Source: Oikopleura dioica
Lineage: Eukaryota > Animalia > Chordata
NCBI GenBank assembly: GCA_907165135.1
Contig: OU015566.1
Location: forward strand, 2,790,001-2,854,000
Reading direction: 5' to 3'
DNA length: 64,000 nt
In this document: positions 22,736-51,140 of the stretch, in pieces
Layout of the letters: each line of letters begins with the position of its first letter
Numbering within the stretch: the first letter of the stretch is position 1
Translations under genes and position numbers: made by a program
Notes under the pieces: model-generated
Databases searched by the model: none
What the model saw: the letters and a program-made list of their open reading frames with translations, nothing else
What the model was told of the DNA's origin: nothing

Positions 22736-22755
22736 ATAAATGACTGTTTATTTAA

Positions 22756-23456
22756 GGGGGAGTATCACGGATTTGGAAAAGTCGGAATTTTGATAATATC
22801 TCTTTGGATTTTTAAAGCTCTGGTCTTGACTAACAAAAAAAATATGTATCACTTTTTTTGATTTCTTCGAAAAGTCCGTCAAAAACGACATTGAAAGTTG
22901 CCTAGCCGCGCCTATTGATATTCATCTGCGACGCTGTGGGTGTCGAAATTGTGTTCAGAATACTTTGTTTTTAAAATTTTTTGTAAAATTTACATTTTTA
23001 TGGGTTTTTAATGAATATTCTCACATAAAAACAGCAAGATATCTTCATTTTAGCAGCTTTCAATACTAATTGAATTCATGAAAATCTTCAAATTTGGAAT
23101 CATTTTTTCAAAAAAATTTTCGGTAAGAATTTTTTGGGTACACAAAATTTCCTCCAAAACAGCATTAGATAAGGGAATGATCTTCCTAAATCCACTGAGA
23201 ATTCCATGATCAGACTTAATTTTCTTAAGAAAATTTTTGTTCTGCGAGAGGCTAAAATCGCGACTTTTCAAAAACGGGTTTGACTCTTGGCTCTCTTCTG
23301 CGATACTCGATTGAGTTAATTGAAATTAAAAAAAACAGCACTAGATATTGGGCATATCTATCTACCACAGGCGGAATTTTAGCGTAAGCTAAGCTCACGT
23401 AGAAATGAGAGCTGATCTCCGACCCCCCTTTAGCCCAAAATCCGTGATACTCCCCC
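22756..23456. mobile_element. 701-bp TTAA-flanked MITE with 5'-GG termini (Kolobok-like)
   Basis: ttaa|gggggagtatcacggatttgg ... ccaaaatccgtgatactccccc|ttaa. Confidence 0.85.
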
Positions 23457-23988
23457 TTAATGTTCAAATGTATTTATACAGTTTAGTAGACATGGGGTTG
23501 CTAAAGGGTTCTCTCAGCCAATCAGAGACCAGTATTTTATCTATCAGCCAATCAAAGACGAGCTTTTGCCAAAAGTCTATTGATCAGGTGGTACAGAGTC
23601 GTATCTCATCAGCTGAGAAAAGTTCTTCTTATTTTCTTCAGAAACCATGGTCGTCTCCAGAAACGCTTTGAGATTTTTCGCATTGTTCGCCAAATTTTCA
23701 AATCGTTTTCGGAAAATGTATTTTCTCGTCAGATGAACTCCTTCAATGTAAGCGTTGATAGTATGCGTCATTCGAGAATTGGTAGGGTCTTTTCGTGGCT
23801 TTTCGAATTTCCGTTAAATATACACGTCACGAATCCTATGATTTTCCCGTTACTTTTTTGAGCCGAAAATAAACGTAAAAGTATAATCCCCGAACGCTTC
23901 AAATCCCCTGACGTGTTTTTCTTAAATATTTTTGTGTTGAAATAGCTACGAAAAAATGACCACAATTATTTTTTATTAACGGCCAATT

Positions 23989-24930
23989 TTATAGCTCCAC
24001 CTTAGTTTTGCTCATAAAAGCGAAAGCCCTGCCGTAACAAATAAAATTCTGAGTCGATCCCTTGTCACAAGTATGGATGAGCAGTGACCCTCGCTTCATT
24101 GCTTTTGGAATCGGATCGTTTGGCATCACAACTCGTAGATGGTGATTTACCCTTTTTTCTGGCTCGTTTTGCTCTTGCTTTTGTTTTTTTGCGAGAAAAT
24201 GAGCCCGACCTTGTCTGGAAAAGATGCTTGAAAACGATATTTCCCGGTTTTGGCGACCCAAACGTCTCAACATTGATCCTAACATCTTCATAAACACGCG
24301 CCAGATAGCAACCAAATAAGGCGGCGACACCTGTTTAGATTTACATAAAATAATGCTAAAACATAATTTTCTTACCTCCGCCGAGAGAATGGCCAGTAAG
24401 AAGAATTTCGTCGACTTGATGTTTTGATTTAATTCGGTCCATGAACTCGAGAGCTTGATCTCTCAAGCCAACAAATTGTTGGTAAAAGCCTAAAAATCTT
24501 GAAATACACCGGTGTAAAAACCTGAGTCAGGGTCCTGACTAAGCGTTTATACGAAGCCGCGCGGAGCGGCTTTCTTTGAAAAGCTCTTGGTTGACCCTTA
24601 TTGAGGTCTTTTCTACACAGGTAACGAAACTGTGCGATTCTTATTTAGCATAATTTCTTTCTAAAAAGAATGAAACTGCCCGCGAAAAATACCTGCGTGA
24701 ACTTTGATCTTAGGATGCGTGTCGGCCTCTTCTTTAAATTTAACTTGCCACATTTTGAGATCTTGTGCCATGTCGCCAACTTCTGAAGTTCCACGAATGC
24801 TCAAAATTATCATTTTGCGCGGCGGTTTCAAACAGCCTGGAATTTCTTTTTCAATCGCGTAACAAATGTACGCGTCAGCACGCGACTTGTTGTGCCGAAT
24901 GTAGTCGTACTCCAGGTGGCTAAAATTTTT
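23989..24930 (-). CDS. Class-3 lipase, 3' exons; 5' part not found left of the retrotransposon
   Basis: IILSIRGT...DL...KVHAG, ILLTGHSLGG, ETFGSPKPGN, VVMPNDPIP across spliced exons. Confidence 0.85.
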
Positions 24931-25008
24931 CATTAACTTATGAATCATAAGTTATGATCGATTCGGAATCTGAAATGAGTTTTCATGAAAATATTTCTTG
25001 TTTTTTTA

Positions 25009-25301
25009 TAAGAAAAGAGAAAAAAGGTTAACTTAGGCGTAGTCGAAATTCTAGAGTATAACTTAGTTGTTTTGATTATGGTGGCCAGTTCCGAGCGTGA
25101 GTGTTGTTGAAATCAGGTGCGCGGGTCACGATATTTCTAGAACGCTCCTGAGGATGGGCCGCGCTAAAGCAAAAAGTGAAAAACACTTCATTCTGAATTT
25201 TCTCAGAGAGGCATCAACACCTCTCGGAAAATTTTCTCAAAAAGCGCTTGAAGCGGACCGGAATCCGAAAACAAGCAGCTAAGAAAGAGAATTTGAAAAT
25301 T
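25009..25301 (+). repeat. Split direct repeat A1 (293 bp)
   Basis: Identical by eye to 40003-40295. Confidence 0.97.
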
Positions 25302-25368
25302 TTTCCTCACGAATTGACGCTCTCTGGAAAACCCCTACTCAGTGTGACGTTTATTCCACACGAGGAAG

Positions 25369-26010
25369 ATGCTTACGGAGGTCAACCCTCGTCGGACGGA
25401 CGTAGCCCATTGGCTGAGACAGAAGGATAATCCGTGGGTTGGAATGTCCGTCTTTGATTTCTCAGTCACGGAGCTTTTCTCCAATCTCGTTGTCACTAAG
25501 GCTACGACTCCCGTTGGAGGTAGAGCATGTGAATGCTAATCCTCAGTAGTTAATTTTGGTTTTCAGAAGGCGTCGTCTTCCTGGAGGAACTACGGACAGA
25601 AACCTTCACGAACACTAAGCGACTGATGGACCAGTGCTTCTTGATTCGTATTTCAACTAAGGATGGAGGCAAGAACCTCTCCTTCTATCACGACGCGAAA
25701 GAGTGAGTTATTCCCACAAAATTACGTTTCCTAAGAATGATTTAGCATGACTGAGGTCCTGCTCACGGCGGATGCGCTTAATGCCTGGATAAACCCGGAA
25801 CTTATTGGCACCATCGGACGGTGGAAGCTTCCTCAGGAAAGGTTGAAGAAAATCCTTGTCGTAAAAGTTCTAAGAAAAACAATTCTAGAAACCCGAATTG
25901 AACATTCATCATTAAAACCACATATGTGTATAAACTCAGTAAATTCATTTGGAATCATCCGGGAAACATGTCAAAGCGCCTTTATGGTTTACAAAAACAA
26001 ACAATTCTAG
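25369..26010 (+). CDS. Element gene 1, unknown function, spliced; 3' end unresolved (25901 or 26010, or joined to the large ORF)
   Basis: ATG 25369. Introns 25520-25566 (47 nt) and 25703-25745 (43 nt) keep frame into ORF 25747-26010. Confidence 0.6.
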
Positions 26011-26310
26011 AAGGTCCATTATTGCGAATCACACATCCTGCCGGGAGAGATATTTAAACCCTTTCCTCAGGCCAGATAAAAGCTGAGGCGACCGGAAAAC
26101 CGGTGATTTAACCCAAAAGATGGGAAAATAATGATTCTAGAAGCCATCTATATTACAAACTACATATCTAAGTAAAGGATTTTCGGTTCTCTAACAAGAA
26201 CGCCCTCCCGAGAGATATATTCCTAAGGATTCACTAAAAACTTAGTGGACTTAAAATAAACAATTCTAGAATCGTACAAAATCGCCCAGAAGGATAATCC
26301 AATTGCTAAG

Positions 26311-29300
26311 TTGATACCGTCTTCAAACCTCTCTAAGTTGCCGAAGATTCGGGTGCCGATAACCCGAAATGATTCCTTAGCGAAGAACTGCAGCCTTCGA
26401 GCGTTCGCCAGTCTTTACAAAGAGGATGAAGCGGAAAATCCGAAATACTTAGAAATCTGCTACGACTCGCCGCGCGAGGACGACCTCAACATAAGTCTTT
26501 GGGAAGCCGAGAACTTGAATGCGATCACTAAGGCTCAACGGAAATGGTTCGAGCGAGACCCAGCGGGAAAACTGAGATCCCCGGCGCCGGCTGACCCAAA
26601 GAAGCTACTGGACACGAGCACTTCAGCCTTGATCCGCTGGTGGACCAAACTTCTGATGAAGAAAGATACTCAGGCAGGCCATCTCGACTTAGATATCTCC
26701 ACCTTGCTCACTGAGGAAGATTTGGACGACATCTTTCGGTGGACCGAAACCGTGGACCAAGCGGATTTCAATACCCAAAATTTAACTAAGTTCCTCGCGT
26801 CTCGATGGATAAAGCGAACCCGACCACACACCCGCAGAATCTGGTATGAGAAAGACTACGTGGAGAAACTAAAAGAAACAGGCGGAAACCTAAGAGAAAC
26901 TACGAATCCTGAGATAGTTGAAAAGCTATACAAGCTCGCTGACTGCATTCGAATTGACCCGGGTAACCAATTCTGGAGATTCACCGCGGCATGGCTGAGA
27001 CAAGTTTACCAACTAAGTTACAGCTGGCACAAAAGCATGCAGCAGAACACTGAGGAAATCCCGGAGACTCTTTTCTTCTTCGAGAACGGCGCAGATTTGA
27101 CCAGACGCAAGAAGGAGAAAGATGAATACCTGAGCCCGATTCCCTCCGTCATTGAAGAAACGTCTTCGACCCCGACGGCCTGGTTGCTTATTGACACAGC
27201 CCCGCTGCAACTGGTTTTGATCAACTTAGAATACGATAAGGAAAGAATCACTCAGGAAATGTGGATCTGGCAGAAGCTGGCCAAGACGATGGGCGTCAAG
27301 AAAGAAGTCCAAGAGTCGATTCGACGATGGATAGCCACAACTCAGAGACAGGGCTTTCGCCAAGCTGCGGATGATTGGAAAAACTTAGTGGAGAAAGTTA
27401 ACGATCGTAACTGCGAAGGAAACCTGAGGGTGTTAATCGAACCATGGGCAAATTCGACCGACGAACAAATGTTGAAGAACATCCGACAGACTCTGATTTA
27501 CTTAGCAAACGACGACATCATGGTCACCAGAGCCCGACTTAGAAAAATCCTAGGAAAGCAGAGGGTTTCAAACGAAGTTATCAACTTTGAAGATATTGAA
27601 ACGGTCGAGGCTGACTCCCTCCCATACGATTTTACGACTCAGATTCTCAACGGCGGCCCAGTCAGAGTCTTCCAAACTTCCTCAGAACACAGACCGGGCA
27701 TCTGCAGAGTCATCGGCTGTTCTCGACGCAGCGGAAACTTTCAGTGCTGCAACAAGTGCGGACAAGCCCTCCCGATGATTTTCGACAACCTGAGAGACTC
27801 AAGAATGGTCGTCGACCTATCCCAACCCACTGAGAAGAAAGTAATTGCGCGGGAGCGATGGACGGAACCGAAAATCATGAACGACGTTCACCCACACACC
27901 CGAGCTGAAATCCACGCCGACATCATCGACATTCAATCCACTCAGAGGGAAATGGGTGGCGCCCGCGACAAAATTGCGGCGATTCTGGCTGAGAAATATC
28001 TGTCAGGAGTTCAACGAGACTGGGGCCACTCGTATTACCGCAATAATGAAAATCTACTGAGAAATATGAGGGACTTCGCGGAAAACTTCCAAACCCTTAA
28101 GGAAAAAGCTCACTGGTGCTGCCTTCAAGAGCAAACGGAAGGCGTGGCGATCCTCTTTCCTCTACTCAGCATCAACGACGATGGCAAAAGAAAATACGCC
28201 GACCCTCTCTTAGTCCAGATAACTAAGGGATCTTACTCGAGAGGGATCCTGCTCCGCGAATTACCCGACAACACTGAGAAACTCTGGACTAAAACTAAGT
28301 TTAAACTGAGACACGTGGACGTCCTGGCCTTCATCGACCAAGTCTCCCAGCTCGCTGAAATGTACGACGCTGAAAACTACCTCCCTGAGTTCGAAGTAAT
28401 GCGCGACATTATCACTAAGCAAAAGGGAATCGACATCGCCATCCTGACCGAAACACACAGGGAATTCGAAAAACTCTCAAATCTCCTGCTACGAGAATTG
28501 GTCGACGACGTGGAAAACAGGGGGGCCAGAACCCAGTACCCACAAATCTTAGGACACGGCTCAGTATATGGTTTCTCAGTAATTGACCGTTTTGATGGCC
28601 GATCGAAACAAACCAAAACTTTCCTCAGACCAGTCCAAAAAGGCGCTCATCTTGGAATGCCGAAATCCGTGGACAAACACGAATCTCAGTCACTCCTGAA
28701 CTTCCTGAGCAACTTAGCAGTCGCAAGAAACACCGTCAACGGTTGTCATCCTGAGAACTTGATGGGCATCACAACCTGGAGCGTTTTGGGATCTTCTCAG
28801 GGAGCGGAATGGGCACGACAAGAAGAGGTGGTTGCCTTCATGGCATTGATCATCGATCATGCAGACCGTGCCATCCTGAGATTTTGGAAAATTGAAGAAG
28901 CTGAGTTGATCTACAAGGATGGAGTTTTCAAACCAACTGAGGAAACTCCTGAAATTACTAAGAAGAAGATGGCAACTTCTCAGGCGCCACGCGAATTACA
29001 AGCTCAGCGGGAAGAAACCCTCTGGAATAAACTGAGAAGTCACACGTTGTGGCCCCGCCGTTTCTTAGAATCGATCCGACAGTACCTTCAGCCAGACGGC
29101 CGAGTGGGAAAGCGCCTGTTGAAGCAGATTCTTCATGACTTTAATCGCTTCTATCTTACAGGATACATGGGCCAGAAGAGAGCCCTCATCCCGATAATGG
29201 AACGATACTTTCAACTCAGAGATGATGCGAGGAACACGAGAAATCGCCCACGGGATCCGACGAACAGACCTTTCCCTTCTAAGACTTGGCACAAACGCCA

Positions 29301-30576
29301 ACGAACGACCCGCAAAAAGCTCGACAAATTCGGTTTCCCGGAACCGGGCGATGACTCAGATTGCTCAGATTATAGCTCAGGCGAAAACGACCCCGAACCA
29401 AATTACGATACGGGACTTACATATGTAGCCGACTCAGCATCGGAACTATCCGACACTAGCTCAGACTCAGACTCGAACTCAGAGGATGGAGAAAGAAGCC
29501 TTCGCGTGGAAGAATCCTTGTCGAATGAAGAAATTCCCCCAGCCTTGGTGAGACTGGAGGATGCAGGATCACCGAACTTACCTCAGCTGGAAGATGTTCC
29601 CGAGCCACCACCGGCCTCAATGAGGGAAGAAATCGAAAAACTTAGTCAGAAAACTCAGAAGAATCACCCAGAGCCCGAACAACCTGGCGGTTTCAACAAA
29701 GAAAGATACTTCGAGATGCTGAAAGAAGAAAGGCACGCAAGAGTGCTAGCTGGCGAACTTTCTCACCTTTATTTATCTAAGGAAACAGAGGATAAAGCTA
29801 AGCAAGAAGCGAGGGATTTCTTCGCACGAAAAGCCCAGGAGTACGCGAAAAGAAATGTGGCAGCGGGGATGAGCTCAGAAAGCTCTTCTTCATCGTCCTC
29901 AAACAGCGAAAGTCCTGAAGAAGATGAGATTGTCATGGTCCCAAGACTGGAAGACGACTCCGGCTCGTCTTCGGATTCCTCAGTGGCAACAGTCATCGAT
30001 CAAACTGAGTTTAGAAGGCGACAAGAAGCGATCCAGAAGATCTCCGACGTCCAGCGAATCGAAACGGATGATAGACAACGGGAAAATTTAACTAAGAAAA
30101 TCCTTTCGCGAGAACTGCTTGGCGAAACTAAGAAAGAAGATGGACTTTCGGGGTCACGAAAGAACGCCGGAGCAGCCGGAAAACTTGCAACTGAGAAAGA
30201 GTTAGAGGAAATCACTGAGGACATGAGCAAACTGAGCGTCAGCAAGAGCGAGAACTCGGGAAACGACTCGAAACCGACACCTAGAAATCAAAATCTGCTC
30301 TTCGATGAAGCTAGACAGCTGAGACAAGGTACGGGTGGAGAGAGACCCGAGAGAAGATTCAGATTCGCCGATAACTCATCAAGGGAGCGACAACTAAGCG
30401 AAGTTCGTGTGATTCAGCGATTGAACTACCGACGAATGTTCGACTCAGCGGAACTGAACCAAAACGAGGGTCCGTCTTATTTGCCTGAGGAAGAAGACGG
30501 TTCACTTCCAGAAGGTAAAACGACACACATAAAAACTCCATTTAATACTAAGAAAGAATACTGGCTAAAAGATTGA
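26311..30576 (+). CDS. Element ORF, 1421 aa, unknown function; acidic/Ser-rich C-terminal third
   Basis: Uninterrupted ORF, open from 26260. First in-frame ATG is late (LLMKK), so the 5' end is probably spliced. Cys cluster CRVIGC...CCNKC. Confidence 0.85.
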   Translation: MIPSSNLSKLPKIRVPITRNDSLAKNCSLRAFASLYKEDEAENPKYLEICYDSPREDDLNISLWEAENLNAITKAQRKWFERDPAGKLRSPAPADPKKLLDTSTSALIRWWTKLLMKKDTQAGHLDLDISTLLTEEDLDDIFRWTETVDQADFNTQNLTKFLASRWIKRTRPHTRRIWYEKDYVEKLKETGGNLRETTNPEIVEKLYKLADCIRIDPGNQFWRFTAAWLRQVYQLSYSWHKSMQQNTEEIPETLFFFENGADLTRRKKEKDEYLSPIPSVIEETSSTPTAWLLIDTAPLQLVLINLEYDKERITQEMWIWQKLAKTMGVKKEVQESIRRWIATTQRQGFRQAADDWKNLVEKVNDRNCEGNLRVLIEPWANSTDEQMLKNIRQTLIYLANDDIMVTRARLRKILGKQRVSNEVINFEDIETVEADSLPYDFTTQILNGGPVRVFQTSSEHRPGICRVIGCSRRSGNFQCCNKCGQALPMIFDNLRDSRMVVDLSQPTEKKVIARERWTEPKIMNDVHPHTRAEIHADIIDIQSTQREMGGARDKIAAILAEKYLSGVQRDWGHSYYRNNENLLRNMRDFAENFQTLKEKAHWCCLQEQTEGVAILFPLLSINDDGKRKYADPLLVQITKGSYSRGILLRELPDNTEKLWTKTKFKLRHVDVLAFIDQVSQLAEMYDAENYLPEFEVMRDIITKQKGIDIAILTETHREFEKLSNLLLRELVDDVENRGARTQYPQILGHGSVYGFSVIDRFDGRSKQTKTFLRPVQKGAHLGMPKSVDKHESQSLLNFLSNLAVARNTVNGCHPENLMGITTWSVLGSSQGAEWARQEEVVAFMALIIDHADRAILRFWKIEEAELIYKDGVFKPTEETPEITKKKMATSQAPRELQAQREETLWNKLRSHTLWPRRFLESIRQYLQPDGRVGKRLLKQILHDFNRFYLTGYMGQKRALIPIMERYFQLRDDARNTRNRPRDPTNRPFPSKTWHKRQRTTRKKLDKFGFPEPGDDSDCSDYSSGENDPEPNYDTGLTYVADSASELSDTSSDSDSNSEDGERSLRVEESLSNEEIPPALVRLEDAGSPNLPQLEDVPEPPPASMREEIEKLSQKTQKNHPEPEQPGGFNKERYFEMLKEERHARVLAGELSHLYLSKETEDKAKQEARDFFARKAQEYAKRNVAAGMSSESSSSSSSNSESPEEDEIVMVPRLEDDSGSSSDSSVATVIDQTEFRRRQEAIQKISDVQRIETDDRQRENLTKKILSRELLGETKKEDGLSGSRKNAGAAGKLATEKELEEITEDMSKLSVSKSENSGNDSKPTPRNQNLLFDEARQLRQGTGGERPERRFRFADNSSRERQLSEVRVIQRLNYRRMFDSAELNQNEGPSYLPEEEDGSLPEGKTTHIKTPFNTKKEYWLKD

Positions 30577-30640
30577 TTAAAGGCAGCTTTTTCGGACCAG
30601 GATATAAAATTTCATTTGAAATAGTTCCGCTAAGCATTTC

Positions 30641-31250
30641 ATGAACCGGTATTTCCAGCTACTAAATTTAACTAAAATATGGTGTTGACTTTGTTAACAA
30701 AATTATCCTTACTAACTTAGAATTATAGTTCCAGCCGGCATTTACGGTCAGAGCTCGAGATTTACACGCCGGGGACCTACTGGCGAGTCCGAGCGAGAAA
30801 TCCTACGACTAAGACAGATCGGAATCACCAGGGAAGCCCAAGCAGTCGAAACAGCCGCCTCCACGTGGTCCGAAACTCAGGTCAAGAGGATTGAAATGGC
30901 CGCTTATACGGTCACGACCCTTTACAACTCAGTCACAGATGATGTGCTCTTACAGGTAGCTCAGTAATTCAAGTTTCTCGGGAAATTAATGAAATCTCAG
31001 GCACAAGACGACTTGGCACGTTTTGCCTTAGAAGACGGCGCTCAACTCACACGCTTACTTCACCAACTAAGTTTAACTCGAAGAGACGCCTTTTTCAACC
31101 CGTCAGTTTTGCGGCTCTCTATTTACCACGCGCTCAGACGAATGCAGAAACTGGTAAGAACTGAAACTCGGACCCAGAACTAAGTAAGTGGTTCAGGGAC
31201 AGGTTAAAACATGGTGGAAGGACTTCATCCCGAAGAGCCGAGAAGATTGA
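30641..31250 (+). CDS. Element gene 3 (~150 aa), unknown function, spliced; first exon tentative
   Basis: Exons 30721-30955, 31001-31153 and 31197-31250 joined by 45- and 43-nt GT-AG introns in phase 0. Confidence 0.6.
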
Positions 31251-31547
31251 AAACCGAAAAAACCAATAACTTAGAACAGTAAAATTTTCCTTTCTACTGA
31301 GAAAACTTCAAACTTAGTCTGTATCCATTTATCAATACACTTATCTCATTGACAAGCAAAAACGCTACGCCGAGAATTCACAACTTCCGTGGTCAGATTA
31401 CAGCCGAGAAGCCCGGTGAAATGGGAGACCCCAAAGTACTCGGTGCTTCGGAGCGGAATGAAGGAGTCGGTGACTCTGAGGCCTCGGTGGTTATGAATTC
31501 TTGGAGGGCAATTTTTGTTATATATACTCAGGTTCAAAGGCTTCAGA

Positions 31548-32736
31548 ATGAGCAAAACTCGCAAGCATAACTCGATTCCCCCAACTCAAACTGAGCAAGA
31601 TCAAGAGCCTCAACTTGGAACAAGCGGCTCAGTGCAGGAAAAACTCAGTGATAGCGGAGAATGTACGATCAAGGTGTTGCAAGAACAAGTCATCACTTTG
31701 CAGGCGCAAGTCAAGCTTGTCGACTCGGTGGTCAAAAATCAAGCACACCTGGAGAATTCCGTGGATACCTTAGCAAACCAACTTCACTTAGCACACCAGC
31801 ACAACGACACGGTGGTCCCGACAGACTACACACGCGATTTAACTGAGATTGAAAAAGAAACCGGCCGTTTCTCGAAACCGATCGAAATTTCGGTTCAACA
31901 GGCTTATAGAGTCGAAGCAACTTACACTCAGATGCTGGCCCTAACACTGGGAAGAGAAGCTAAATGTCTCTACGCGGCAACACGTTTCTCCCTGTACGAT
32001 CTTTTTCCCAATCTTACCTCAGAACAGACAATGGTAAAGAAAGTCCCACTCGACGCCAGCATCTATAAAGAATTTGCCGACGTCAATGCACTACTTAGAG
32101 AACTCATGGACGAACGCAAGGAGAAACGAACGTGGTCTTTAAATCTGAGAGATGGCCTTTTTATCGTAGCACGGTGAGTACTCAAAGACCTTAAAACTTC
32201 ACTTTAAGATTCCCGTCAAAAATTTTCCGTACTAAATAACGTAGACTCCCTAGAATGTATTTCTTGTAAATCTTCGTTATATAAATCTTGAACGTTCTTT
32301 AGTAGTTGAAACGAATACAAACTTAGTGATTCCTCGACAAACTGAGTTATTTAGAAACACCTACCAAGCCTTCTTCGTCGATCTTCTCCGGGCAGTCACG
32401 GCCCCAAACATCTTCGAGCTGTCCCTGGGAACTTTATCTCACTTAGTCAGAACATCGAAGGATGGCCTACAACGTTTATTCGGACGACACAATAACACCG
32501 TCTACAGAATGGACGACTGGCTGAGAATGTCTGAGAGCCCTACTTTTACCAGACAGAACGCACTACAAGAACTAAGAAACCTCTTCCCACTCAAGTCGGA
32601 GACATCGAAGATGGTTTTCACAGCACTGGCCTTGGATAAAGCAGATGAGGCTCTCGCAGCCGGCATCGATGATTGGCATGCCACGTCCTCGAAATACGAC
32701 TTAGAAGAAGAAGGAGAAATCCCGACGACTACTTAA
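31548..32736 (+). CDS. Element gene 4, coiled-coil N-terminal half, possible Gag/ORF1-like; join between 31548-32173 and 32326-32736 unresolved
   Basis: cttcag|aATG start. Heptad-like VLQEQVITLQAQVKLV. GTGAGT donor at 32174. Confidence 0.55.
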
Positions 32737-32936
32737 AACTCAGACTCAGAGGAAGAGGCCGGAAACATCTACGAAAATTTCGTCAGGAAAGCCAAAAGAG
32801 CCCGACTATAAAGAAGGAATAATTTTACTTAGATCATAAATAACTACTGAGATAAAAACAACTGAGAGTTGAATTATGTAATCTGCCTTTACAATTAAAT
32901 ATATCCAATAAGGAAATTCCACGTCCACATTTCAGA

Positions 32937-35345
32937 ATGACAGATAATTATAACTTTCATGAGGCGCGCGCGAAAACGTTGGAATTAATAAAAGAAGGAA
33001 AATTCGATTATCGCAACTCAGATGAAATTGCAGCATGCAAGCTCGATCAACTGGAACGAGACAAGAATACACCGATTTGGAACACTCAGGACTGGATAGC
33101 TTATGGATTAAGATGCTTAGATAACTTAGAAAAATACGATAACGGGAACCTTGTACTCGACTGGGAGTTAATAAGGTTTAGAGCAGAGTCAGAATTCCAA
33201 GCAGGTTCGTTTTCTAAAATGTCCCCAATTTGGTTTTTAATCTCGAACAGACTTAGGCCCCAAGACCGCGGCGAAATTTATCACACCATTCATAAAGGAG
33301 TAAACCTGTTCGATAATTTAACTAAGATATCGGAGAAAAAACCAATAATTTATAAGAACAAATCATTTTTTACTAAGAAAATTACTAACCCAGACAATGC
33401 CTCGATTTGCCACAAGGAGGAAGTGGTCTGGGCAGAAAAGTACCCATACCCGCGAGAGGTGTGGACCCCAGTCTTCAGAAATGATAAGGGAAACATTGAG
33501 AACTTAAGTTTTAGAAACCCAAAGTCCATCACCAAGTACCACTCCGTTATTACTAAGCAATTAATTAAATGGTCCAACTCGGGGAGTATTGAGTGGGTTC
33601 CCTGGCATCACGTTCAAAGACCCTTAATGATCGGAAATATAGTTATCGCCCCAAAAGCAGGACCTGAGCTCTATCGAATGTGCTATAACGGGGGCCCCAT
33701 AAAGTTCTGTGAAGAGCACAAACAACCCTGCCACTTAGATACAGCCGCAATGGCTCTGGATCACCTAGAAAAAGGGGACTTGCTGACCAAAGTGGACGAC
33801 AAGTCGGGTTTCCACCAACTTTTCTTAGATAAATTTAGCCGAGAAATGGCATATTGCTCGTACGGGGGAGAACTCTTTCGTTACTCAGCGGCCGCGTTCG
33901 GTCTCCCTAAGATTCCCGGAGTCTACCAAATGATAAACAACGTGGCAATTAATTTTCTGAGAGAAAGGGGCCACCAGGCCTTCTTATACTTAGATGACAG
34001 ACTTTTTATCACAAGACCAAAAACTAAGACAGAAGCGGAAGACCTTCTCAAAGGGAAAAAGGTCCCCGAGGGACCTTTCTTAGGAATGATGATAATGACG
34101 GCCTTGGGAACTTATATTAATCGACCAAAGAGCGAGCTGGTTCCCACCAGAAGAATAGAATTTTTAGGTTTTATAATGGACACCGATAAATGCACGGTTG
34201 AGATCCCACCGGGAAAGTGGGAGAAGTTTTCTGAAGAATCTAAGGAAATCTTGAAGAAATCCAAAGTCTTATTTAAGGACTTGGAAAAGCTAAGGGGGAA
34301 GATGGCGTCTTTCGCGTTGGTCGCCTTAAATATGAGACTCTACATAAGACGGATAACTGAGGCTCTGGTTAGATCGGAAGGAGAGGATTACGTTAAAATG
34401 ACTCAGGATATTAAGGATGAAATTAATGAATGGCTCAGCTCGAAATACGTAGCCAAAAGTAGATCTTGGCTCAAGCCGGGTATTGTCAAAGCCAGGATAA
34501 CTGAGGTACATACAGACGCAAGCAATTATGCGGCTGGAGTCACCATCGAATCGGAAAACTTAGATATTAATGTCCCCTATACGGAAGGTGATGCGATAAG
34601 CAGAGACCCCATACACCTAAAAGAGGCATACGCCGTTTTGTACACACTCAGAAATTTCGGGAAAAAGTTTCGAAACCGCAGACTTAGCTTTAAAAACGAC
34701 AACATGGCTGTCGTCAGAACTTTCGAGCACGGCTGCTCGAATCCGGCCCTGAATAGACTAATCCGCAAGATCCATGAAACGGCGGCGGACAATAATATTT
34801 CCTTAGAAATAGAATGGGTTCCTACAAAAGAACAAAAAGCGGACGCGGCCTCGAGAATGATCGACTCACGTGAAGCTATCTTTCGCACTTCAGCTTTCAC
34901 TGAGATTGAGAGAACTCTCAAAATAAAATTTACCTTAGACGCAATGGCCAGCCCGAACAACAAGAAATGCAAAAACTTCATCTCTTGGAGAGAGGAGGAT
35001 AACACGTGGGCCTCAGATTTTTTCTCAGTTAAGGACTTCGGGGATCACAACATCTGGGTTTTCCCGCCCAAGAAATGCACAGAAAAGGCCTTTTTCTGGC
35101 TTAAGGAACGGGCGAGACGAAACACATGGGCGCTGGTTATCTTAGAGTATGAAGCGGTTTCTTCAATCTGGCCAGTGGCCACCGGCCCGGAATTTAGCAC
35201 ACTTAGAAATATTAAGAATAATCCTGTTCTCTTCCCTTCGAAAAAGTGGTCTGATAGCTTTAAGGGATATTGGAAAATTCCAAGCAAAACCACCTGTTCA
35301 ATCTTAGTGCATTATCCAACAAGAAAACGAGCTCTCCAAATTTAG
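32937..35345 (+). CDS. Pol: reverse transcriptase + RNase H + DIRS-type Dam-like methyltransferase domain (802 aa)
   Basis: RT: KVDDKSGFHQ, FGLPKIP, YLDD, IEFLGF. RNase H: VHTDASNY, HLKEAYAV, DNMAVV, KADAASR. MT: LDAMASPNNKKC, DFFS, WVFPP. Confidence 0.95.
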   Translation: MTDNYNFHEARAKTLELIKEGKFDYRNSDEIAACKLDQLERDKNTPIWNTQDWIAYGLRCLDNLEKYDNGNLVLDWELIRFRAESEFQAGSFSKMSPIWFLISNRLRPQDRGEIYHTIHKGVNLFDNLTKISEKKPIIYKNKSFFTKKITNPDNASICHKEEVVWAEKYPYPREVWTPVFRNDKGNIENLSFRNPKSITKYHSVITKQLIKWSNSGSIEWVPWHHVQRPLMIGNIVIAPKAGPELYRMCYNGGPIKFCEEHKQPCHLDTAAMALDHLEKGDLLTKVDDKSGFHQLFLDKFSREMAYCSYGGELFRYSAAAFGLPKIPGVYQMINNVAINFLRERGHQAFLYLDDRLFITRPKTKTEAEDLLKGKKVPEGPFLGMMIMTALGTYINRPKSELVPTRRIEFLGFIMDTDKCTVEIPPGKWEKFSEESKEILKKSKVLFKDLEKLRGKMASFALVALNMRLYIRRITEALVRSEGEDYVKMTQDIKDEINEWLSSKYVAKSRSWLKPGIVKARITEVHTDASNYAAGVTIESENLDINVPYTEGDAISRDPIHLKEAYAVLYTLRNFGKKFRNRRLSFKNDNMAVVRTFEHGCSNPALNRLIRKIHETAADNNISLEIEWVPTKEQKADAASRMIDSREAIFRTSAFTEIERTLKIKFTLDAMASPNNKKCKNFISWREEDNTWASDFFSVKDFGDHNIWVFPPKKCTEKAFFWLKERARRNTWALVILEYEAVSSIWPVATGPEFSTLRNIKNNPVLFPSKKWSDSFKGYWKIPSKTTCSILVHYPTRKRALQI

Positions 35346-35346
35346 A

Positions 35347-35790
35347 ATGGCCCCCTGGTTCGTTGCCTCAGTAAGAGCGGGAGACTACGCCTACAAAAAG
35401 CACGATGCAAGAGTTAACCTCTTCAACGGATACCAGTACCAGCTAGAGCAGATTCGGACTTCGAAGTTTTATAGCGGCTACAAAACTAAGTTAACAAGGA
35501 AACAGTGGGCCGACACGAGACCATCCTTGGAGGAATTACTGAGCGCAACATCGAAAGTCTTTCCTCTCTTCCGAACCACCTCCATGTCGTCGATCGAGAG
35601 ATGTATCTTGCTATCAACTCAGGACAACTTGAAATATGAATTCCTACACAACATCGGAGAAACACTGAGAGAAACTCTCGAAATGGAAGAAAAATACGTA
35701 AAATTACAAACTAAGATGACAACGCACATTCACTTAGACTGCTATACTTTCGCCCAAGAGGCAAACCTCTCAGCACCTGTCCTCGACTAA
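35347..35790 (+). CDS. Element ORF, 147 aa, unknown function
   Basis: Starts 1 nt after the pol stop (TAG-A-ATG). Confidence 0.7.
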   Translation: MAPWFVASVRAGDYAYKKHDARVNLFNGYQYQLEQIRTSKFYSGYKTKLTRKQWADTRPSLEELLSATSKVFPLFRTTSMSSIERCILLSTQDNLKYEFLHNIGETLRETLEMEEKYVKLQTKMTTHIHLDCYTFAQEANLSAPVLD

Positions 35791-35857
35791 GAAATTTCTT
35801 TTCTTGTTAACGGAAACAAATTTCATTTTAACCAAACTTTTATTTAACGAATTTAGA

Positions 35858-37521
35858 ATGGCCTTATTTACGACAAACCTAAATAAACCGTTATTATGGG
35901 ACTCAATGATCAAGGGTGAAACTAAGTCGAACATCCAGAGATTCATCGAACCAGTGGCAATTGATGAAAAACAATTCCGTGAAATCCACGAAGAAAACAT
36001 GAAGAACTCAGACTTCAAGCTTTACTACTCAGACATGAAAGAGACTAAGGAAAGATGGGAGCAGGCAAGACGTGAGTCTTCACAAGCCTTGGAAACACTG
36101 AAGGAATGGAAGAAGAAACTGGAATGTTTCCCTCTTCTAAAGAAGTCCAAAGAATCCGGATCGCTACTCAAGGGTAAAGACAAAGACATCTACGAACTAA
36201 GGGAAGAAGGATTGGCGGATAAAATCGAGGAAGCTAAGAAATTGGACGACGCCAAGAATAAAGAAAAAACTAAGCTAAGAGAGCAGTGGGTCCACGCTGA
36301 TCGCCTCTGGAAAGAATTTTCCCTGACAATGCTGGGCCAGCCCTTCGCCTACGAAAGCGACGGTAAATTCTTCAGAATCGGAGGAGGAACAATCTCACTA
36401 CGACAAAAACCTAAGAAAAATCTGGACGAAATGGGAACTGAGTTTCGGGAATTCTTGATGGATAAGAAGAGCGTTACAACGATGAGCTTTGCAAAAATAA
36501 CTGAGATTCTTTACAAGTAAGATACCAACCATAAAACTTAGAAGAATTCTCCCCATTTAGAATTTCAGTAGATAAACCCAGGCGATACCCTGATGTAATG
36601 AATCTTGTTGGACATTTATGCATGATTACTGCTAAACGCTAACCCTAGATACGAGAAAGCCTGCGAACCTGGAACCCACGATCGCGGACAAGTAGGAGAG
36701 GTACTCAACTTCGTCCGAGAAAATCCGACCTGCTCAAGACAAGATTTCTTAGATGAGGCAATGAAGATTGCAGATGCGGACTTCAAGGTCGAGCTTCAAC
36801 GACACATAAAATCACTAAGAAAAAACAAAGAATATGAAAACGATCTGAACAATTCAATCGACCCCACAACTGAGAGAGATGAAATACTGAAACAAGGACG
36901 CGCAGACTTCCAGGTCGCCAAAATGATGCAACGGAAGCTGGCACCCGTTCGGGAACATTTAACTGAGGAAGAAAGATCGAGGTAATCACGAACAATTATG
37001 CGGAACTTAACGCAATTCTTGAAATTAGAATATCAATCTTAGCACGACTTAAAATTATGTACCAGCTCAGAAAAAAGAAACATTACGGTTTCCATAACTT
37101 AGGATTTAGATATGGCCTCCAGTTCAGCAGGAGAGGGAGCCGCCCTGACAACCGACGAAACAACTTCCAAGAGCAGCGTCGACGACATGGAAACTCAGAT
37201 CGACGTGACAACGGCTTTAGAACTGAGCGAAGAGAACGATACTCAGGGCGGGACTCAGGAAGAGATCGCCGGGAGGGCTTCGATTACCGACGACGGGATC
37301 AACGCCCTTTCAATGACAACAGGCGGTTTCACAATGGCAACGGCAACCACAACAACTCAGGATACAACAACCGACGTGGTTGGGGCAGCAACAACAGAAA
37401 CAACTCAGGCAACTACAATGGCGGCAGAGGTTACCACGGAAGAAACCGCGACAACTCAGGTTACAACGAAAATCAACGACGAGGAAATGCTCAGCCTTCT
37501 GAACAAAAGATGGAACAGTAG
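35858..37521 (+). CDS. Element gene 7: helical charged protein with predicted Arg/Gly/Asn-rich RNA-binding tail (Gag/nucleocapsid-like), spliced
   Basis: atttag|aATG at 35858. ORF segments 35858-36520, ~36650-36981 and 37110-37521. Intron 36982-37109 is phase-compatible; the middle join is unresolved. Confidence 0.55.
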
Positions 37522-37676
37522 ATGATATGAAGAATATGACAACTGAGAGAACTTAGAATTACTTAGAAAAACCTTCCTTATGCTCAGTAATTGGAAAAGT
37601 CTGCACTTATCTTCAATATATCCCACGTATACCTCATATAACGCCACAGGATCTAAAAATTCTCCCGAAACTTAGA

Positions 37677-38770
37677 ATGAAAGACCGAGACTGGGCAGTG
37701 AACGAATGGGTCCGCGTGGGCCTGAAAAAGAATACCAACTCAGAACGATTGGACGACGAGAAGATGCAGGAGTTAGTAGGAAACTTAGAAATAGATAACC
37801 CGGGTAAACCCTACGGATGGACATTAATCCAATCTCAACTAATTTATGCACTAGAAGAGTCCCTAAGATATCAACTAACAAATGGTGCAATTCAGACGTT
37901 AAGATCCTACATAACTAAGAGAACCCGGGAGCAAGCGAAAGGAGAACTGTATGAGCCAAATCCGCCTCCCTTCTTTGGATGGGAGGACATGAAAAAGTAT
38001 GGAATACGATGTGGTACCCTCACCCAAAGAAAAACTTAGAAACTCGGCACAAGGTGGTGCTCGTGAGCTACATTTGCTACGTTACTGGAGCCAGAACTAA
38101 TGAAATTTGCAACATCAAGATCCAAGACTTAGAGGAACATCAAGAGGACGATCACACTTTCCTCAGAATGCCAATTAGGGTAAGCAAGAGTAACAGTAAA
38201 AAGACAAGGAGAGAAAGTGTGATCCTTATTTCTAAGCCAACGGATATTATCCCAGTCATGGAACGATTAAAACTCAGCATCGGGAAACGAAAGAAAGGCC
38301 CGGTCTTTCAAGAAATGAATACAGCTAAGGTCACTTATTTTTTGAAAAAGACAGCGAAAACCTTGGGCTGGAAGATCGCGCCACGGGCCCACGGAATGCG
38401 GTTGGGATACGTTCTCAACTCTTCGATCGGAGGAATCGCGGACGACGAGATCATCAACTCCTGCCGTTGGAGAGACGACCAAATGCTGAGATATTACAGA
38501 AATCACCACTTAGAAGCGACGAAGCATGGATCGGCCTTCAAAATATACCAACAAAACGAGAAACTGAGACTGGGAGACATCGAGGCTAAGAAAGCTTGGT
38601 GCGAAAGATCGACACAAACACCGGATTGGGAACCCCCTAAGATGGTCCAAACTAAACTGAGAACAATCAAGAAAATGGCGGATGGACAGACTCAGACGGA
38701 AGAAATTACATCCGAAAATCAGGAGGAAACTTCTATCTTCGAAAAATTTCTGAGAGACTCTCGACACTAA
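37677..38770 (+). CDS. Tyrosine recombinase, split by a -1 frameshift at the A5 run 37992-37996
   Basis: TGARTNEI (R), HGMR (HxxR), CRW and MLRYY (W, Y). Adding one A gives a continuous 364-aa ...WEDMKKVWNTMW... Confidence 0.9.
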
Positions 38771-38819
38771 ACTTAGAATTTAACAAGATTACCGAAGTTG
38801 ACAAAGACCGATCTTCAGA

Positions 38820-39864
38820 ATGCTATCCGTGAACATGCTCCGAAAAGGGCAACGACTCAACACTTGTGGATCACTCAGGTGTATCTGGTCTCCAGTCACA
38901 CCGGCCGATGCCTGTGATGCCCCAGAAGAGAGGAAGGACCAGCTCAACTTACAAGTCTCCATGGCCTGTCAGTCTGCCAGTTACTGGTATGCAAACAACT
39001 TAGTGAAAATGGTGAGAGATGGCGAAAACAAGGAAGAAGAGTTCAAGAACCACCTTGACACTTTAACTGAGAAACACCACTACGACTGGCACGAGGTGAA
39101 GTCTTTCTATCACAACGTAAAGAACCACTCAAACATAAACGCTGTGCTGGAGAAATGGGAAAGGTAGATCACCTACACGTGATTTATCGGGATACAAAAA
39201 ATTTTTTAGTTTAAAACAACTGAGTATCATCAAGATCGCCAGAAGGGACAAGAACGTCGACGAGAAGCTGGAGAAGATGGAGAGACGAATCGGCATCCAC
39301 TTAGCGCAGGAGGAATGCGGACTGGCAGACCTTGACCTTGGAACCGACTCGAAAGGGACAATCCAGAAAACTCTGCATAAAATCTGCGAAGAAGCATTCC
39401 TTAGTGACATACAGGTGAAGAAGCTTTGGCACTTAGCTTGTAGGGAACCGGGCCTCTCAAACAAGAAGACAAACATCTACGTGACGGGCGAAGCAACAAA
39501 CCTATACAGCTTAGAAGAGGAAATCGCCACTCATGCCCGTTGGGACAGGCTCGACAAGAAGTTCACGCTCGTCTATCTTTACGTGGATTCAGACGAGGCC
39601 CCCCTACTGGTGATGTATAATGGAGAAAATCCGACAATTCTAGACTCAACTCAGGATGACTGGACATTCAAAACTAAGACTTCCTGGACACGTAACGATA
39701 GAAAAATCAGCGAAATCCTTCAAGACTCAGAAAGCAAACCTCTACTCAGATATAACGACTCCACTCAGGCTGTTATCTTGTCACTCACAGGGGAACAGTT
39801 CAAGACTACGGCAGGAAGAAAACGACGAAACTCAGCATCACGACCTTTGACAGATCAAAACTAA
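38820..39864 (+). CDS. Element gene 9 (~332 aa), unknown function, one intron
   Basis: cttcag|aATG start. The 46-nt intron 39164-39209 (GTAGAT...TTTTAG) joins ORFs 38820-39167 and 39277-39864 in frame. AATAAA at 39908. Confidence 0.7.
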
Positions 39865-39961
39865 GGAATGTTATCTTGTATGTCTCCTCATGTATCAAAT
39901 TCACGGGAATAAACTTCATAAACGCCACACTGAGATGGGGTTCCAAATATGGAGAGGGAAC

Positions 39962-40005
39962 GTATTTGGTCTCCATTAGTTGTTATTTATTGATCTTTAC
40001 TGTAA
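39962..40005 (+). repeat. Split direct repeat B1 (44 bp), overlapping A2 by TAA
   Basis: gtatttggtctccattagttgttatttattgatctttactgtaa, identical to 42294-42337. Confidence 0.95.
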
Positions 40006-40295
40006 GAAAAGAGAAAAAAGGTTAACTTAGGCGTAGTCGAAATTCTAGAGTATAACTTAGTTGTTTTGATTATGGTGGCCAGTTCCGAGCGTGAGTGTTG
40101 TTGAAATCAGGTGCGCGGGTCACGATATTTCTAGAACGCTCCTGAGGATGGGCCGCGCTAAAGCAAAAAGTGAAAAACACTTCATTCTGAATTTTCTCAG
40201 AGAGGCATCAACACCTCTCGGAAAATTTTCTCAAAAAGCGCTTGAAGCGGACCGGAATCCGAAAACAAGCAGCTAAGAAAGAGAATTTGAAAATT
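40003..40295 (+). repeat. Split direct repeat A2 (293 bp)
   Basis: Identical to A1 at an offset of 14,994 bp. Confidence 0.97.
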
Positions 40296-42293
40296 CTCTA
40301 CCCACCCTTGCAAAAATTTCTCAGAACGAATTTAAAAACCATATAGATAACTGAGGAATAGGCGGTTAATAATTTTAACCTAAGATTGATTTCCGGGAAA
40401 CTTATTCGTAGAGTCACCACCATAACTTAGCTATAAGAACTTAGACACCGAAGAATACAACAATGAGAACGAGGGAGAAGGTAAACTGGAGATAGTGGGG
40501 AAACCATATCAATTACTAAGGAAGAAGTCGCTTATATTTTAACTAGGACGTGGATATTCGAGAAAACTCCTATAATTTTGGTAATAATTCGTACTTTTGG
40601 CAGAGCATTTCTAGCGTAAGGATCGATCACCATAACAAAGCCAAGAAAACTGAGATACTTGTATTTATCATTACGGGAAACAAACGATAAACTAAGATAA
40701 AGAATTGCACTAGTTTCTGTAAACTGATTGGTTAAACATACTAGAAAGATCTACGGACGGAAGAGATCCGAAGGATGCTAATTAAACTAAGCTACTTCTT
40801 CACTTTGTCTAGAACGCCAAATCTTAGAGTATAAGATATCGATTGAGACACGGGGAAAGAAATCCAAAAGTTTAGAAACCGAATGAGACTTAAGGTTTCC
40901 TCTGCTACTGGCTTCTCGCAGGGATCCAGCCTGAAAGCAGCTTTGGCCAATCTGAGTTCGAACACGGAGCTGGGATCAAGACTTAGTTTAGCGGCTTTCG
41001 TTGGATAGTCTCCTAGATGAAATTAAAAATGCCATAAAAACTCTCTCGGGCGACCGAGATAACAATCCTTTTGATATACAACAAATGACTTAGTAACTTA
41101 ACTATAATTCTTAGGATTATTAATCATCTTACTGAGTGTTAAGCTAGAAAACAACACGTGAAACGATATCAAGCTCGGTTCAACTACCTATACAATGGGC
41201 CATAATTTTTAGAACCATTTCTAAGTTTATTCAATTCCCAATCAGACCGGACATAGCAAAGTTAGGTAAAATAATCACCACGGTTAGAAATCTGTACGAT
41301 GATAATTTCGCTCTCTAGAAAGGGTATCAGGGGACCATAAAACATCTCAGATGGAATAAAACGGAAACTCAGGAAGAGCCGCGGGACGCGATTCAGGATT
41401 ATGATTTATCTTTAAAATGCGTACACTCGAAAACATCATGGCAAGTCCAGACAAACTTAGGGCATTAAAGAATGCGCTCAAGATTAAATCTCAAAAATGA
41501 TTATGAACCTAAGACAAGAATCGAATAACATAACCCTCAGATGAACTGATGACGGTGATTTCGACGAGTACATACCCCCGGCGTCTTTCGAGATAAAATG
41601 CTTAGCTACCATAATATTAATTATTCCGAGTGACTGAGACTCTCGAACAAATGACGGATACTTGAAGATCCTTTCTTAGGCCAGTAATTTAACTCTTCCT
41701 AAATGCTATCGAACTGAGACAATAAAACTAAATGTCCCGAGACACACCATTCATTCGAACGACCTTAAACCTTATCGTAGGATCACATGAGAAGTTACAT
41801 TTATCCTGAGTAGTTAAGGATGGGAACCAAGAGGCAAATTACCTTGCGAATTAGACAATTGAGTCGGATCATCGGCTAAAGCGAAAAATCTAAGGAAGAC
41901 TCTAAAAAAGGAACTTTAAGGTGCTCACACCCGTCGGGAATTCCTGAAACCCTCTAGAGAATCTCTTTCGGGAAGAACCAATCGATGCCATGACGGGCTT
42001 AGACTGAGTGAGGAGGCCCTTAAAACTGAGAGTTCGTGCAAATTAGTTACAAACAAGTTTTTCGTCACCACTAAAGAGTATTCTGAAACTTAGGAACACC
42101 TGAGATTAAGGCTCAAAAAGCACCGTTGTCGATAAAAAACCGTAATAACCCTTAAATAATGGTCACTAAGTAGTTTGTATCGAGACTTAATCTCCTTGGA
42201 TATAAGGAGTGATGAAAGATGTCTTGTGGACCTCAAGGATCATAACGGTAATAAGAATTTTTGCCCACCCTAGTTTACAGTAAGGATCGGTAA

Positions 42294-42337
42294 GTATTTG
42301 GTCTCCATTAGTTGTTATTTATTGATCTTTACTGTAA
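42294..42337 (+). repeat. Split direct repeat B2 (right terminus)
   Basis: Identical to B1. AT-rich host sequence resumes after TAA. Confidence 0.95.
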
Positions 42338-50530: not shown

Positions 50531-51140
50531 CTGTCTCAATGTGAGAAAACACTTGAACAAAGTAAACAAGTTGACGAATACGCTGGACAAGATCAAGAAA
50601 CGATAAATGATTCAAAAAGAAAAAAGTTTATTAAATTTCAAACTGTTTATAATAAAATTAATCAGCAAAAACCAGAGTTGCAAATTTGCTGAGCTGAGTG
50701 AGCTGAGCTGGCTGAGTGAGCTGAGCAGTCGATAAGCTCAGCTCAGTTCAGTGATTTTGGAAAATGATCTGATCTGCTCAGGTCAGACAATTTTCACTCA
50801 GCTCAGCTCAGCTCAATAATTTGAATACAATTTTACTACCAAAAACAGTAAAAATCAGCTCAGCTCAGCTCTAAATTAGAGTCTAATTAGGGTCTGCACA
50901 GCTCAGCTCAGCTTAACTCTCTTCAACAAAAGGTCTGCTCAGCTCAGCTCCGCTCAATGACCTTTGAAAAAGGCCAGCTCAGCTCAGCTCAGTAATCTCC
51001 GAAATAGGCCAGCTCAGCTAAGAGAAATATTTATTCAGGTCAGCTCAGAAAAATTAATCAAAATTTGCAACTCTGGCAAAAACTGAAAGACTCTTTTTTG
51101 CAATCGCTTTTTGACGTTTTCGAGTCGGAAAAATATAATT
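50531..51140 (+). repeat. Diverged duplicate of 48146-48365, interrupted by a MITE
   Basis: ctgtctcaatgtgagaaaacacttgaacaaag... Similarity resumes after 51083. Confidence 0.85.
50673..51075. mobile_element. hAT-type MITE (403 bp) with GCTCA/TGAGC repeats
   Basis: TIR cagagttgcaaattt / aaatttgcaactctg. 8-bp TSD gcaaaaac at 50665-50672 and 51076-51083. Confidence 0.9.

Follow-up and report, generated by a model that had tools for sequence, protein, structure and literature searches.

A 17.3-kb tyrosine-recombinase retrotransposon of Oikopleura dioica with a splice-acceptor-like motif at six gene starts: a candidate operon resolved by spliced-leader trans-splicing

A 64,000-nucleotide (nt) stretch of Oikopleura dioica DNA (GenBank assembly GCA_907165135.1, contig OU015566.1, positions 2,790,001 to 2,854,000 of the forward strand; the whole stretch is called the window) carries a large mobile element at 25009-42337 (17,329 bp). 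Judged by its repeats and predicted domains, the element is a tyrosine-recombinase (YR) retrotransposon of the order DIRS, PAT-type. It runs in the order A1, genes, B1A2, 2-kb spacer and B2 (Table 1), and TAA is common to both element ends and to the internal B1A2 junction. By our gene predictions it has about eight non-overlapping genes, six of which begin at a motif that resembles a splice acceptor.

Table 1. Predicted genes and other features of the element, in window coordinates
Feature	Position	Strand	Evidence
Repeat A1, left end	25009..25301	+	identical to A2 over 293 nt
Gene 1, large protein; open frame 26260-30576, predicted 5' exons from ATG 25369	25369..30576	+	
Small predicted gene, 45-nt GT-AG intron 30956-31000	30728..31183	+	sequence, gene model g701.t2
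Acceptor 1 (AG ends 31546) and gene from 31548, predicted 335 aa, 181-nt intron 32174-32354	31542..32736	+	
Acceptor 2 (AG ends 32935) and pol, 802 aa: RT, RNase H, Dam-like methyltransferase	32931..35345	+	
Acceptor 3 (its TAG is the pol stop codon) and 147-aa gene from 35347	35341..35790	+	
Acceptor 4 and gene from 35858, predicted 494 aa, RG/N-rich tail, introns 36517-36648 and 36982-37028	35852..37521	+	
Acceptor 5 and tyrosine recombinase gene from 37677	37671..38770	+	Phage_integrase E 2.5e-7
Acceptor 6 and gene from 38820, predicted 332 aa, 46-nt intron 39164-39209	38814..39864	+	
AATAAA, candidate common 3' end; sole AATAAA in any gap between or after genes	39908..39913	+	
Internal junction B1 (39962-40005) and A2 (40003-40295), TAA in common	39962..40295	+	
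2-kb spacer, no ORF of at least 90 aa, CTNAG-rich like the remaining element	40296..42293	+	
Repeat B2, right end, terminates in TAA	42294..42337	+	identical to B1, 44 nt

PAT-like elements of the DIRS order are defined by split direct repeats and a methyltransferase domain, which follows RNase H and is lacking in Ngaro and VIPER (PMC3266345, PMC6681497). The present element is assigned to them because it has direct repeats split as A1...B1 A2 B2 and a methyltransferase domain after RNase H; its reverse transcriptase (RT) with RNase H, and a tyrosine recombinase in place of a DDE integrase, place it in the order. The B1A2 junction is, as its sequence indicates, a copy of the predicted circle junction, and no target-site duplication is seen in the sequences at the element junctions. 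None of the 25 longest of 40 inverted repeat pairs lies at the element ends, which carry direct repeats instead; the DIRS1-like subgroup was rejected because the inverted terminal repeats and internal complementary region that mark it were not found. An endogenous retrovirus-like element was rejected because long terminal repeats (LTRs), integrase and env did not appear in the repeat listing or in Pfam scans, and no integrase family matched among the 12 window proteins scanned. The first-pass annotation had offered "virus-like" beside "operon-like", a label that finds no support here, since Pfam found no envelope or capsid family in the window or in the frames of relatives. No gag family was matched by Pfam either; the genes from 31548 and 35858, both kept in relatives, are the candidates, and for the latter we infer a gag-like role. 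Across 51 accessory open reading frames (ORFs) from the window and nine related loci, the recombinase alone scored above its Pfam cutoff, and a scan of IMG/VR with pol as query returned no relative.

The pol protein matches RVT_1 (E 7.7e-7), Dam (E 1.3e-5) and RT_RNaseH (E 0.014), all just below the curated cutoffs (25.4 bits versus 28.1 for Dam), and contains a YLDD motif at 351; the catalytic triplet of the Dam match reads FPP in place of NPP. A structure model of pol (pLDDT, the predicted local distance difference test, 87.6) suggests a fold that matches the solved RTs of caulimovirus, foamy virus and Ty3. The recombinase scores 31.1 bits against Phage_integrase, above the cutoff of 27.1. 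Its gene lies in two frames in this copy (37677-38039 and 37979-38770) with a break near 37990. In P0031, another O. dioica element, the region immediately before the recombinase domain gives a weak alignment with ORF 37677 (E 0.007), and 37677 is therefore read as the recombinase start. The frame split (37979-38039), present despite the identical terminal repeats, may be a mutation, an assembly error or programmed frameshifting.

Several of the ORFs first listed are read as exons, because they end at GT donors and removal of GT-AG introns joins the neighbouring frames. In this frame test, removal of the introns predicted for the genes from 31548, 35858 and 38820 gives the proteins of Table 1, ORFs 38820 and 39277 being joined into one gene, and removal of 25520-25566 (47 nt) and 25703-25745 (43 nt) joins three 5' exons of gene 1 from ATG 25369. 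Four of the seven predicted introns, 30956-31000 included, are sized 43-47 nt, and intron length in O. dioica is reported to peak at 47 nt (PMC4122922). Public gene models, which are predictions and not RNA proof, contain four of the predicted introns: both gene 1 introns are in all three g701 models, and g701.t2 has the introns of the small gene (30956-31000) and of the 31548 gene. Both halves of the latter gene form a single ORF, joined at the predicted point, in L003 (a related metagenome locus; the loci are described below), and its homologue in L002 has a 43-nt candidate intron at another place. L001 and L003 also differ by 204 nt, but this stretch lacks GT-AG ends and was therefore not accepted as evidence of splicing. 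The introns of the 35858 gene rest on the frame test; exon 1 has homology, as far as the donor, in other O. dioica elements, and for exon 2 (after 36517-36648) no homology was detected. A 137-aa Thr-rich ORF (37112-37525), which stands behind tttag/atATG and overlaps the RG-rich exon in another frame, may mark a seventh gene start or another possible acceptor for the intron, or be a shadow frame.

Gene 1 is taken as the host gene g701 in public annotation, one isoform of which merges it with two downstream element genes. Residues 1-920 of its ORF1 are 100% identical to gene model OKI2018_I69.chr1.g701, which was the sole match in a homologue search with these residues (target proteins 718-2286 aa); no Pfam family scored above cutoff in gene 1, and a homologue of its C-terminal part is present in L003. 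From exon 3 to the long frame, 21 candidate intron paths were found, none unique. A Cys-rich stretch (CRVIGC...CCNKC) within 26656-30576 may bind zinc, and the tail is acidic and Ser-rich. The 5' part of gene 1 (25878-26272) contains four (A)ATTCTAGAA copies 122-130 nt apart, which could be acceptors, promoters or old tandem repeats. Upstream, repeat A1 contains the consensus donor GTGAGT at 25097, an acceptor ending at 25206, ATGs at 25078 and 25154, and two copies of TCTAGA (25050 and 25136), which has been described as a male-specific core promoter motif of O. dioica (PMC6389100).

The six acceptor contexts reported in the first-pass annotation all lie on the + strand where it had placed them: cttcagaATG at 31548, tttcagaATG at 32937, atttagaATG at 35347 and 35858, acttagaATG at 37677 and cttcagaATG at 38820. 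Its observation that the pol stop codon is itself the acceptor before 35347 was borne out as well (TAG ending 35345). We found that, among the 227 + strand ATGs of 25002-39956, YTYAGA stands directly before 6 of the 11 that come first in an ORF of at least 100 aa and before 1 of the 216 others (hypergeometric p 1.8e-8, with the motif drawn from the tested sites themselves). Under a looser rule, a YAG 0-3 nt before the ATG, the counts were 7/11 and 29/216 (p 3e-4). YTYAGA followed by ATG does not occur on either strand of the 46,664 nt of host flank, and the seventh match within the element, at 38168, falls on a Met within the recombinase and not on a gene start. The first ATGs that lack the motif are read as internal to intron-joined genes (26656, 37057 and 39277) or as lying inside the split recombinase gene (37979); the fifth, 37112, is preceded by tttag/at. 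As in an operon, the genes are co-oriented and close, with gaps of 0-263 nt and six acceptors, the small gene near 30900 being the exception. The observation of six motif-bearing gene starts made in the first-pass annotation is confirmed.

A search with pol gave 39 homologues, and a metagenome scan gave 20 loci (L numbers). Pol identity was at most 61% for environmental homologues, 31-40% for O. dioica models and 33-65% for the metagenome relatives. The pol start was examined in 15 loci with a pol 5' end, grouped into 10 families (L005, L012, L015, L019 and L020, without this end, were left out). A YAG lies 0-3 nt before the ATG nearest the aligned pol start in 7 of the 10 families, compared with 18 of 112 internal ATGs (p 5.5e-4). 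In + strand ORFs of 13 representative loci, the same rule was passed by 22 of 45 first ATGs versus 147 of 1007 other ATGs, and by 1 of 17 in the minus-strand ORF control. The acceptor context hence recurs at gene starts of diverged relatives, a check that had been proposed with the first description of the motif. For a consensus, 35 starts were chosen by a fixed rule (7 from the window and 28 from 11 relatives; a few are probably false) and compared with 550 AT-matched YAGs, or with 2004 YAGs for the base after AG. The consensus is TTYAG/A, common to the window and the relatives: TT stands at -5/-4 in 26/35 starts versus 77/550 background sites, A directly follows AG in 25 of the 30 starts whose ATG is not adjacent versus 782/2004, and TAAY occurs upstream in 16/35 versus 115/550. 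An extended form was seen at three starts of L014 (atctatttag twice, atctattcag once) and at about ten of L016.

The distance from AG to ATG varies from 0 to 5 nt across relatives, and orthologous starts in L003/L005 have offsets of 2, 0, 1 and 2; because the offsets differ at orthologous starts of the closest relatives, a leader joined there would be noncoding. In the window, L005 and L008/L010/L016 (two lineages), the pol stop and the acceptor AG are one and the same, and in L010/L016 this also holds for the stop preceding the recombinase. The remaining 5 of 10 pol ends have their next acceptor 51-132 nt downstream; L001, whose pol end is deleted, was left out. L010, L016 and the P0007 cluster form a related lineage with contigs of 18-24 kb and more than 12 ORFs without Pfam match, in which a GTAGGCACCATAAA-type motif of 32-47 nt is repeated in both orientations. 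Positions 1-5738 of L009 are an exact tandem duplication of a 2,870-nt unit with a partial pol, which may stem from a small circle or an assembly artefact.

These patterns suggest that the best reading is a noncoding leader joined at the acceptors, with SL (spliced-leader) trans-splicing somewhat ahead of cis-splicing. We lean, with modest confidence, towards one transcript that would be resolved into single-gene mRNAs at the six acceptors by the SL trans-splicing of the host. O. dioica does resolve operons in this manner, as the first-pass annotation had stated, and the AGs at its trans-splice sites are unpaired, with A as the usual next base (PMC6389100); of the consensus then quoted, TTT(C/T/A)AG/A, this source confirms the A that usually follows AG. 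The A bias at the element starts therefore counts for trans-splicing. Polyadenylation in the operons of Ciona takes place at the G of the next acceptor downstream (PMC1488885), which would force acceptors at or after the upstream stop, and the zero-spacing floor between the element genes may be taken as weak evidence for trans-splicing. A leader from donor 25097 in repeat A would carry an upstream ATG that is out of frame at all six acceptors, which was also counted for trans-splicing.

Several observations weigh against SL resolution. Gene 1 (ATG 25369) and the small gene near 30900 (candidate start ATG 30896) begin without the motif; 3 of 10 families fail the pol-start comparison, and 6 of 10 pass it if the first ATG is taken. 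Upstream of the 35 starts, the stricter branch motif YTRAY is not significantly enriched (13/35 versus 141/550, p 0.1), poly(A) hexamers are not enriched (3/35 versus 75/550) and TATAW is mildly enriched (7/35 versus 38/550, p 0.013). The coincidence of stop and acceptor is weak evidence because two lineages show it and TAG serves both roles cheaply, and in L005 a second AG lies 5 nt into pol. The gaps of 0-263 nt differ from the intercistronic spacing of 23-30 nt in O. dioica (PMC1488885). Repeat A contains a consensus donor, like a retroviral-type leader; joined to any of the six acceptors of this copy, donor 25703 would keep the frame; and these acceptors all stand at offset 1, more uniformly than in relatives. 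No SL junction was observed, the RNA runs examined being essentially without element coverage. In a run search, no RNA run was listed as containing 30600-39900. Four runs (three bulk poly(A), one single-cell), compared with 21500-39950 at 85%, left the element essentially bare, which is uninformative on expression; in the same four runs the host gene at 21.5-22.4 kb was covered by reads mostly 85-95% alike, from a diverged population. Mapping to L001 at 80% gave 5 partial reads in X4, 38 contigs about 80% alike in X7 (RNA or DNA) and none in X10 and X13; at the L001 acceptors no junction or loose end was found among those listed (best 6 of 43 loose ends), and the coverage was not usable.

In the style of complex retroviruses, one 5' leader exon might instead be cis-spliced to alternative acceptors, producing nested mRNAs that end near 39908. 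We regard this as rather unlikely, but it has the two consensus donors to draw on (25097 and the in-frame 25703), a single AATAAA after the last gene with none in the intergenic gaps, and a precedent in the O. dioica Tor3a env mRNA, which is cis-spliced from the 5' LTR (PMC4402516); the conservation of the acceptors fits cis-splicing equally well. However, every candidate donor has a near partner acceptor (25206, 25566, 25745), a leader from 25097 would bring in the out-of-frame ATG, and the offsets at orthologous starts of the closest relatives are in differing phases, so that no coding leader is kept in frame. Moreover, at none of the 10 pol ends examined does an acceptor fall within the upstream gene, save for the second AG in L005.

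A short internal promoter for each gene, with TTYAGA acting as an initiator-like sequence, or with separate units that are then trans-spliced, appears improbable. Transcription beginning at the motif would give a 5' untranslated region just a few bases long, noncoding DNA is absent upstream of site 35347, and the motif is shaped like the predicted intron acceptors of the element. TATAW is missing at 28 of the 35 starts, against the 7 that have it and the TATAAA found 22-31 nt before the pol acceptor in L008, L009, L010 and L016; internal promotion is known for Tor3b/4b env (PMC4402516), and cryptic internal promoters have been reported within O. dioica operons (PMC6389100). Least plausible of all, and in our judgement very improbable, is an unspliced polycistronic RNA on which the motif provides a context for initiating or reinitiating translation, or arises as a side effect of base composition. 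The stop and start 1-5 nt apart after pol in several copies recall termination-reinitiation, and the element is A-rich and CTNAG-rich, yet the motif is also present at starts that lie 48-263 nt beyond the nearest upstream stop. Because CTNAG is contained in just one of the six acceptor sites (37677), the CTNAG bias does not explain the motif, which is also kept in relatives without CTNAG enrichment.

If the transcript is resolved by SL trans-splicing, transcription from repeat A would produce a single pre-mRNA. In most molecules, trans-splicing at one or more of the six AGs, as presumed acceptors with the SL as presumed partner, together with loss of the cis introns within genes, would yield single-gene mRNAs; at the pol junction, one molecule would yield either the pol mRNA or that of the next gene. 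A minority of full-length RNA would escape all splicing and serve as the template for reverse transcription, and we propose that the DNA copies keep their introns because the template escapes splicing. If partly spliced RNA were copied now and then, this would fit the differing introns of the families. The reverse-transcribed copy would form a circle through the B1A2 junction, which the recombinase would integrate at TAA; such a circle is the established model in the DIRS order (PMC5240408, PMC6681497).

The element is further marked by a palindrome. CTNAG occurs 290 times in 25002-42337 versus 80.5 expected (3.6-fold), and the limits of this enrichment match the element ends: each kb between 25 and 42 kb contains 14-23 sites, compared with 0-7 per kb elsewhere, except for a satellite at 50-51 kb. 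Compared with synonymous-codon shuffles, the counts were 34 versus 10.7 in pol, 76 versus 21.1 in ORF1 and 14 versus 4.3 in the recombinase, each reached by 0 of 500 shuffles, and the spacing of the sites is more even than random (coefficient of variation 0.64 versus 0.90, 0/2000). L001, L003 and L005 are also enriched in CTNAG (3.9-4.5-fold). L008, L010 and L016 enrich CCTNNAGG instead (44, 61 and 67 sites versus 2.9, 5.2 and 5.9 expected), mostly as CCTTAAGG; weaker biases were found for CTAG in L018 and GTNNAC in L019, and ten loci have no clear bias. A lineage-specific palindrome of this kind suggests a site of protein binding or modification. NPP is the usual catalytic triplet of DAMs, and a DAM survey reported no activity in E. 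coli, with palindromes and Oikopleura unmentioned in the portion of its text available (bioRxiv 10.64898/2026.05.21.726589). In the present family, FPP stands in the window pol and in 10 of the 10 relatives where the triplet was found (11 examined), with or without motif bias. Self-methylation by pol as the cause of CTNAG is doubtful because the triplet is FPP, not NPP, irrespective of motif bias. An alternative reader of CTNAG, by analogy, would be an accessory DNA-binding protein of the VANC-like kind; plant VANC proteins are anti-silencing factors.

In the surroundings of the element, the flanking 5-oxoprolinase is 86.6% identical to CBY07073, and RNA reads of the diverged population skip stretches of 71-250 nt in the host gene at 21500-22352, with apparently non-canonical ends. 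The satellite, a GCTCA repeat in the host flank at 50689-51044, is CTNAG-dense too and by its position unrelated to the element. Two inverted repeat pairs, 14427-17917 (146 nt, 84%; enclosing several minus-strand ORFs) and 5513-9749 (116 nt, 85%), are probably DNA transposons or miniature inverted-repeat transposable elements.

DIRS1-like elements in O. dioica and retrotransposon mRNA that is SL-spliced at a single site are already known. PAT-like elements share with the present one the A1...B1A2...B2 arrangement, an RT-RNase H-methyltransferase pol, a tyrosine recombinase and the lack of a target-site duplication. They have three, often overlapping, ORFs, whereas here about eight genes do not overlap, the length is 17 kb (contigs of 18-24 kb in the related lineage), spliceosomal introns are predicted, an acceptor stands at six gene starts, 2 kb separate A2 from B2 and palindrome enrichment extends throughout. 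Cer1 of C. elegans, a Ty3/gypsy element, has an SL1 trans-spliced subgenomic mRNA beside an unspliced 8-kb genomic RNA, the long RNA skipping its splice sites (PMC3315495); it differs in having one SL site and one spliced product, compared with six candidate sites in another retroelement order that are known from DNA alone. The Tor elements live in the same host and also have a downstream gene that needs its own mRNA, but they are LTR elements with integrase and env, the latter cis-spliced (Tor3a) or internally promoted (Tor3b/4b), and the paper on them nowhere uses the word "leader" (PMC4402516). The SL operons of the tunicates O. dioica and Ciona likewise have close, co-oriented genes behind AG/A acceptors, and Ciona operons have the zero spacing seen here at the pol junction. 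Here, however, the operon would be a mobile element that must also keep unprocessed full-length RNA, and its spacing is more varied than the 23-30 nt of O. dioica operons (PMC1488885). The Terminons of bdelloids are also giant retroelements (up to 40 kb) with many extra ORFs, but they have a Penelope-like RT and are telomeric (PMC5408684); a full-text literature search gave, in the text it covered, no match that linked them to trans-splicing. Within the same coverage, it returned no description of an operon-like or SL-resolved YR retrotransposon, or of these large larvacean elements.

Retroelements normally reach their downstream genes through frameshifts, overlapping reading frames, cis-splicing or internal promoters, and the number of genes is limited by this; the genome of O. 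dioica is the most compact among chordates. We put forward, tentatively and as a possibility that falls short of probable, that the giant (17-24 kb) YR retrotransposons of larvaceans would be full SL-resolved operons of 8-12 intron-bearing genes, which switch between protein and genome by spliceosome escape and whose DNA is tiled with a lineage palindrome (CTNAG here, CCTNNAGG elsewhere) read as a self mark by an element protein. Such elements are hidden in public annotation because gene predictors fuse their genes into host-like models (g701.t2, P0020, P0031). The CTNAG enrichment gives a first specific candidate for what the unexplained methyltransferase-like domain, or an accessory protein, of DIRS-order elements might target. 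If the proposal is true, borrowed host trans-splicing could let an element add genes like beads, which may account for a lineage several times larger than typical DIRS elements in a compact genome. It would also allow a clean test of the way in which an RNA rich in splice sites evades the spliceosome for reverse transcription, and a test of operon spread on mobile elements.

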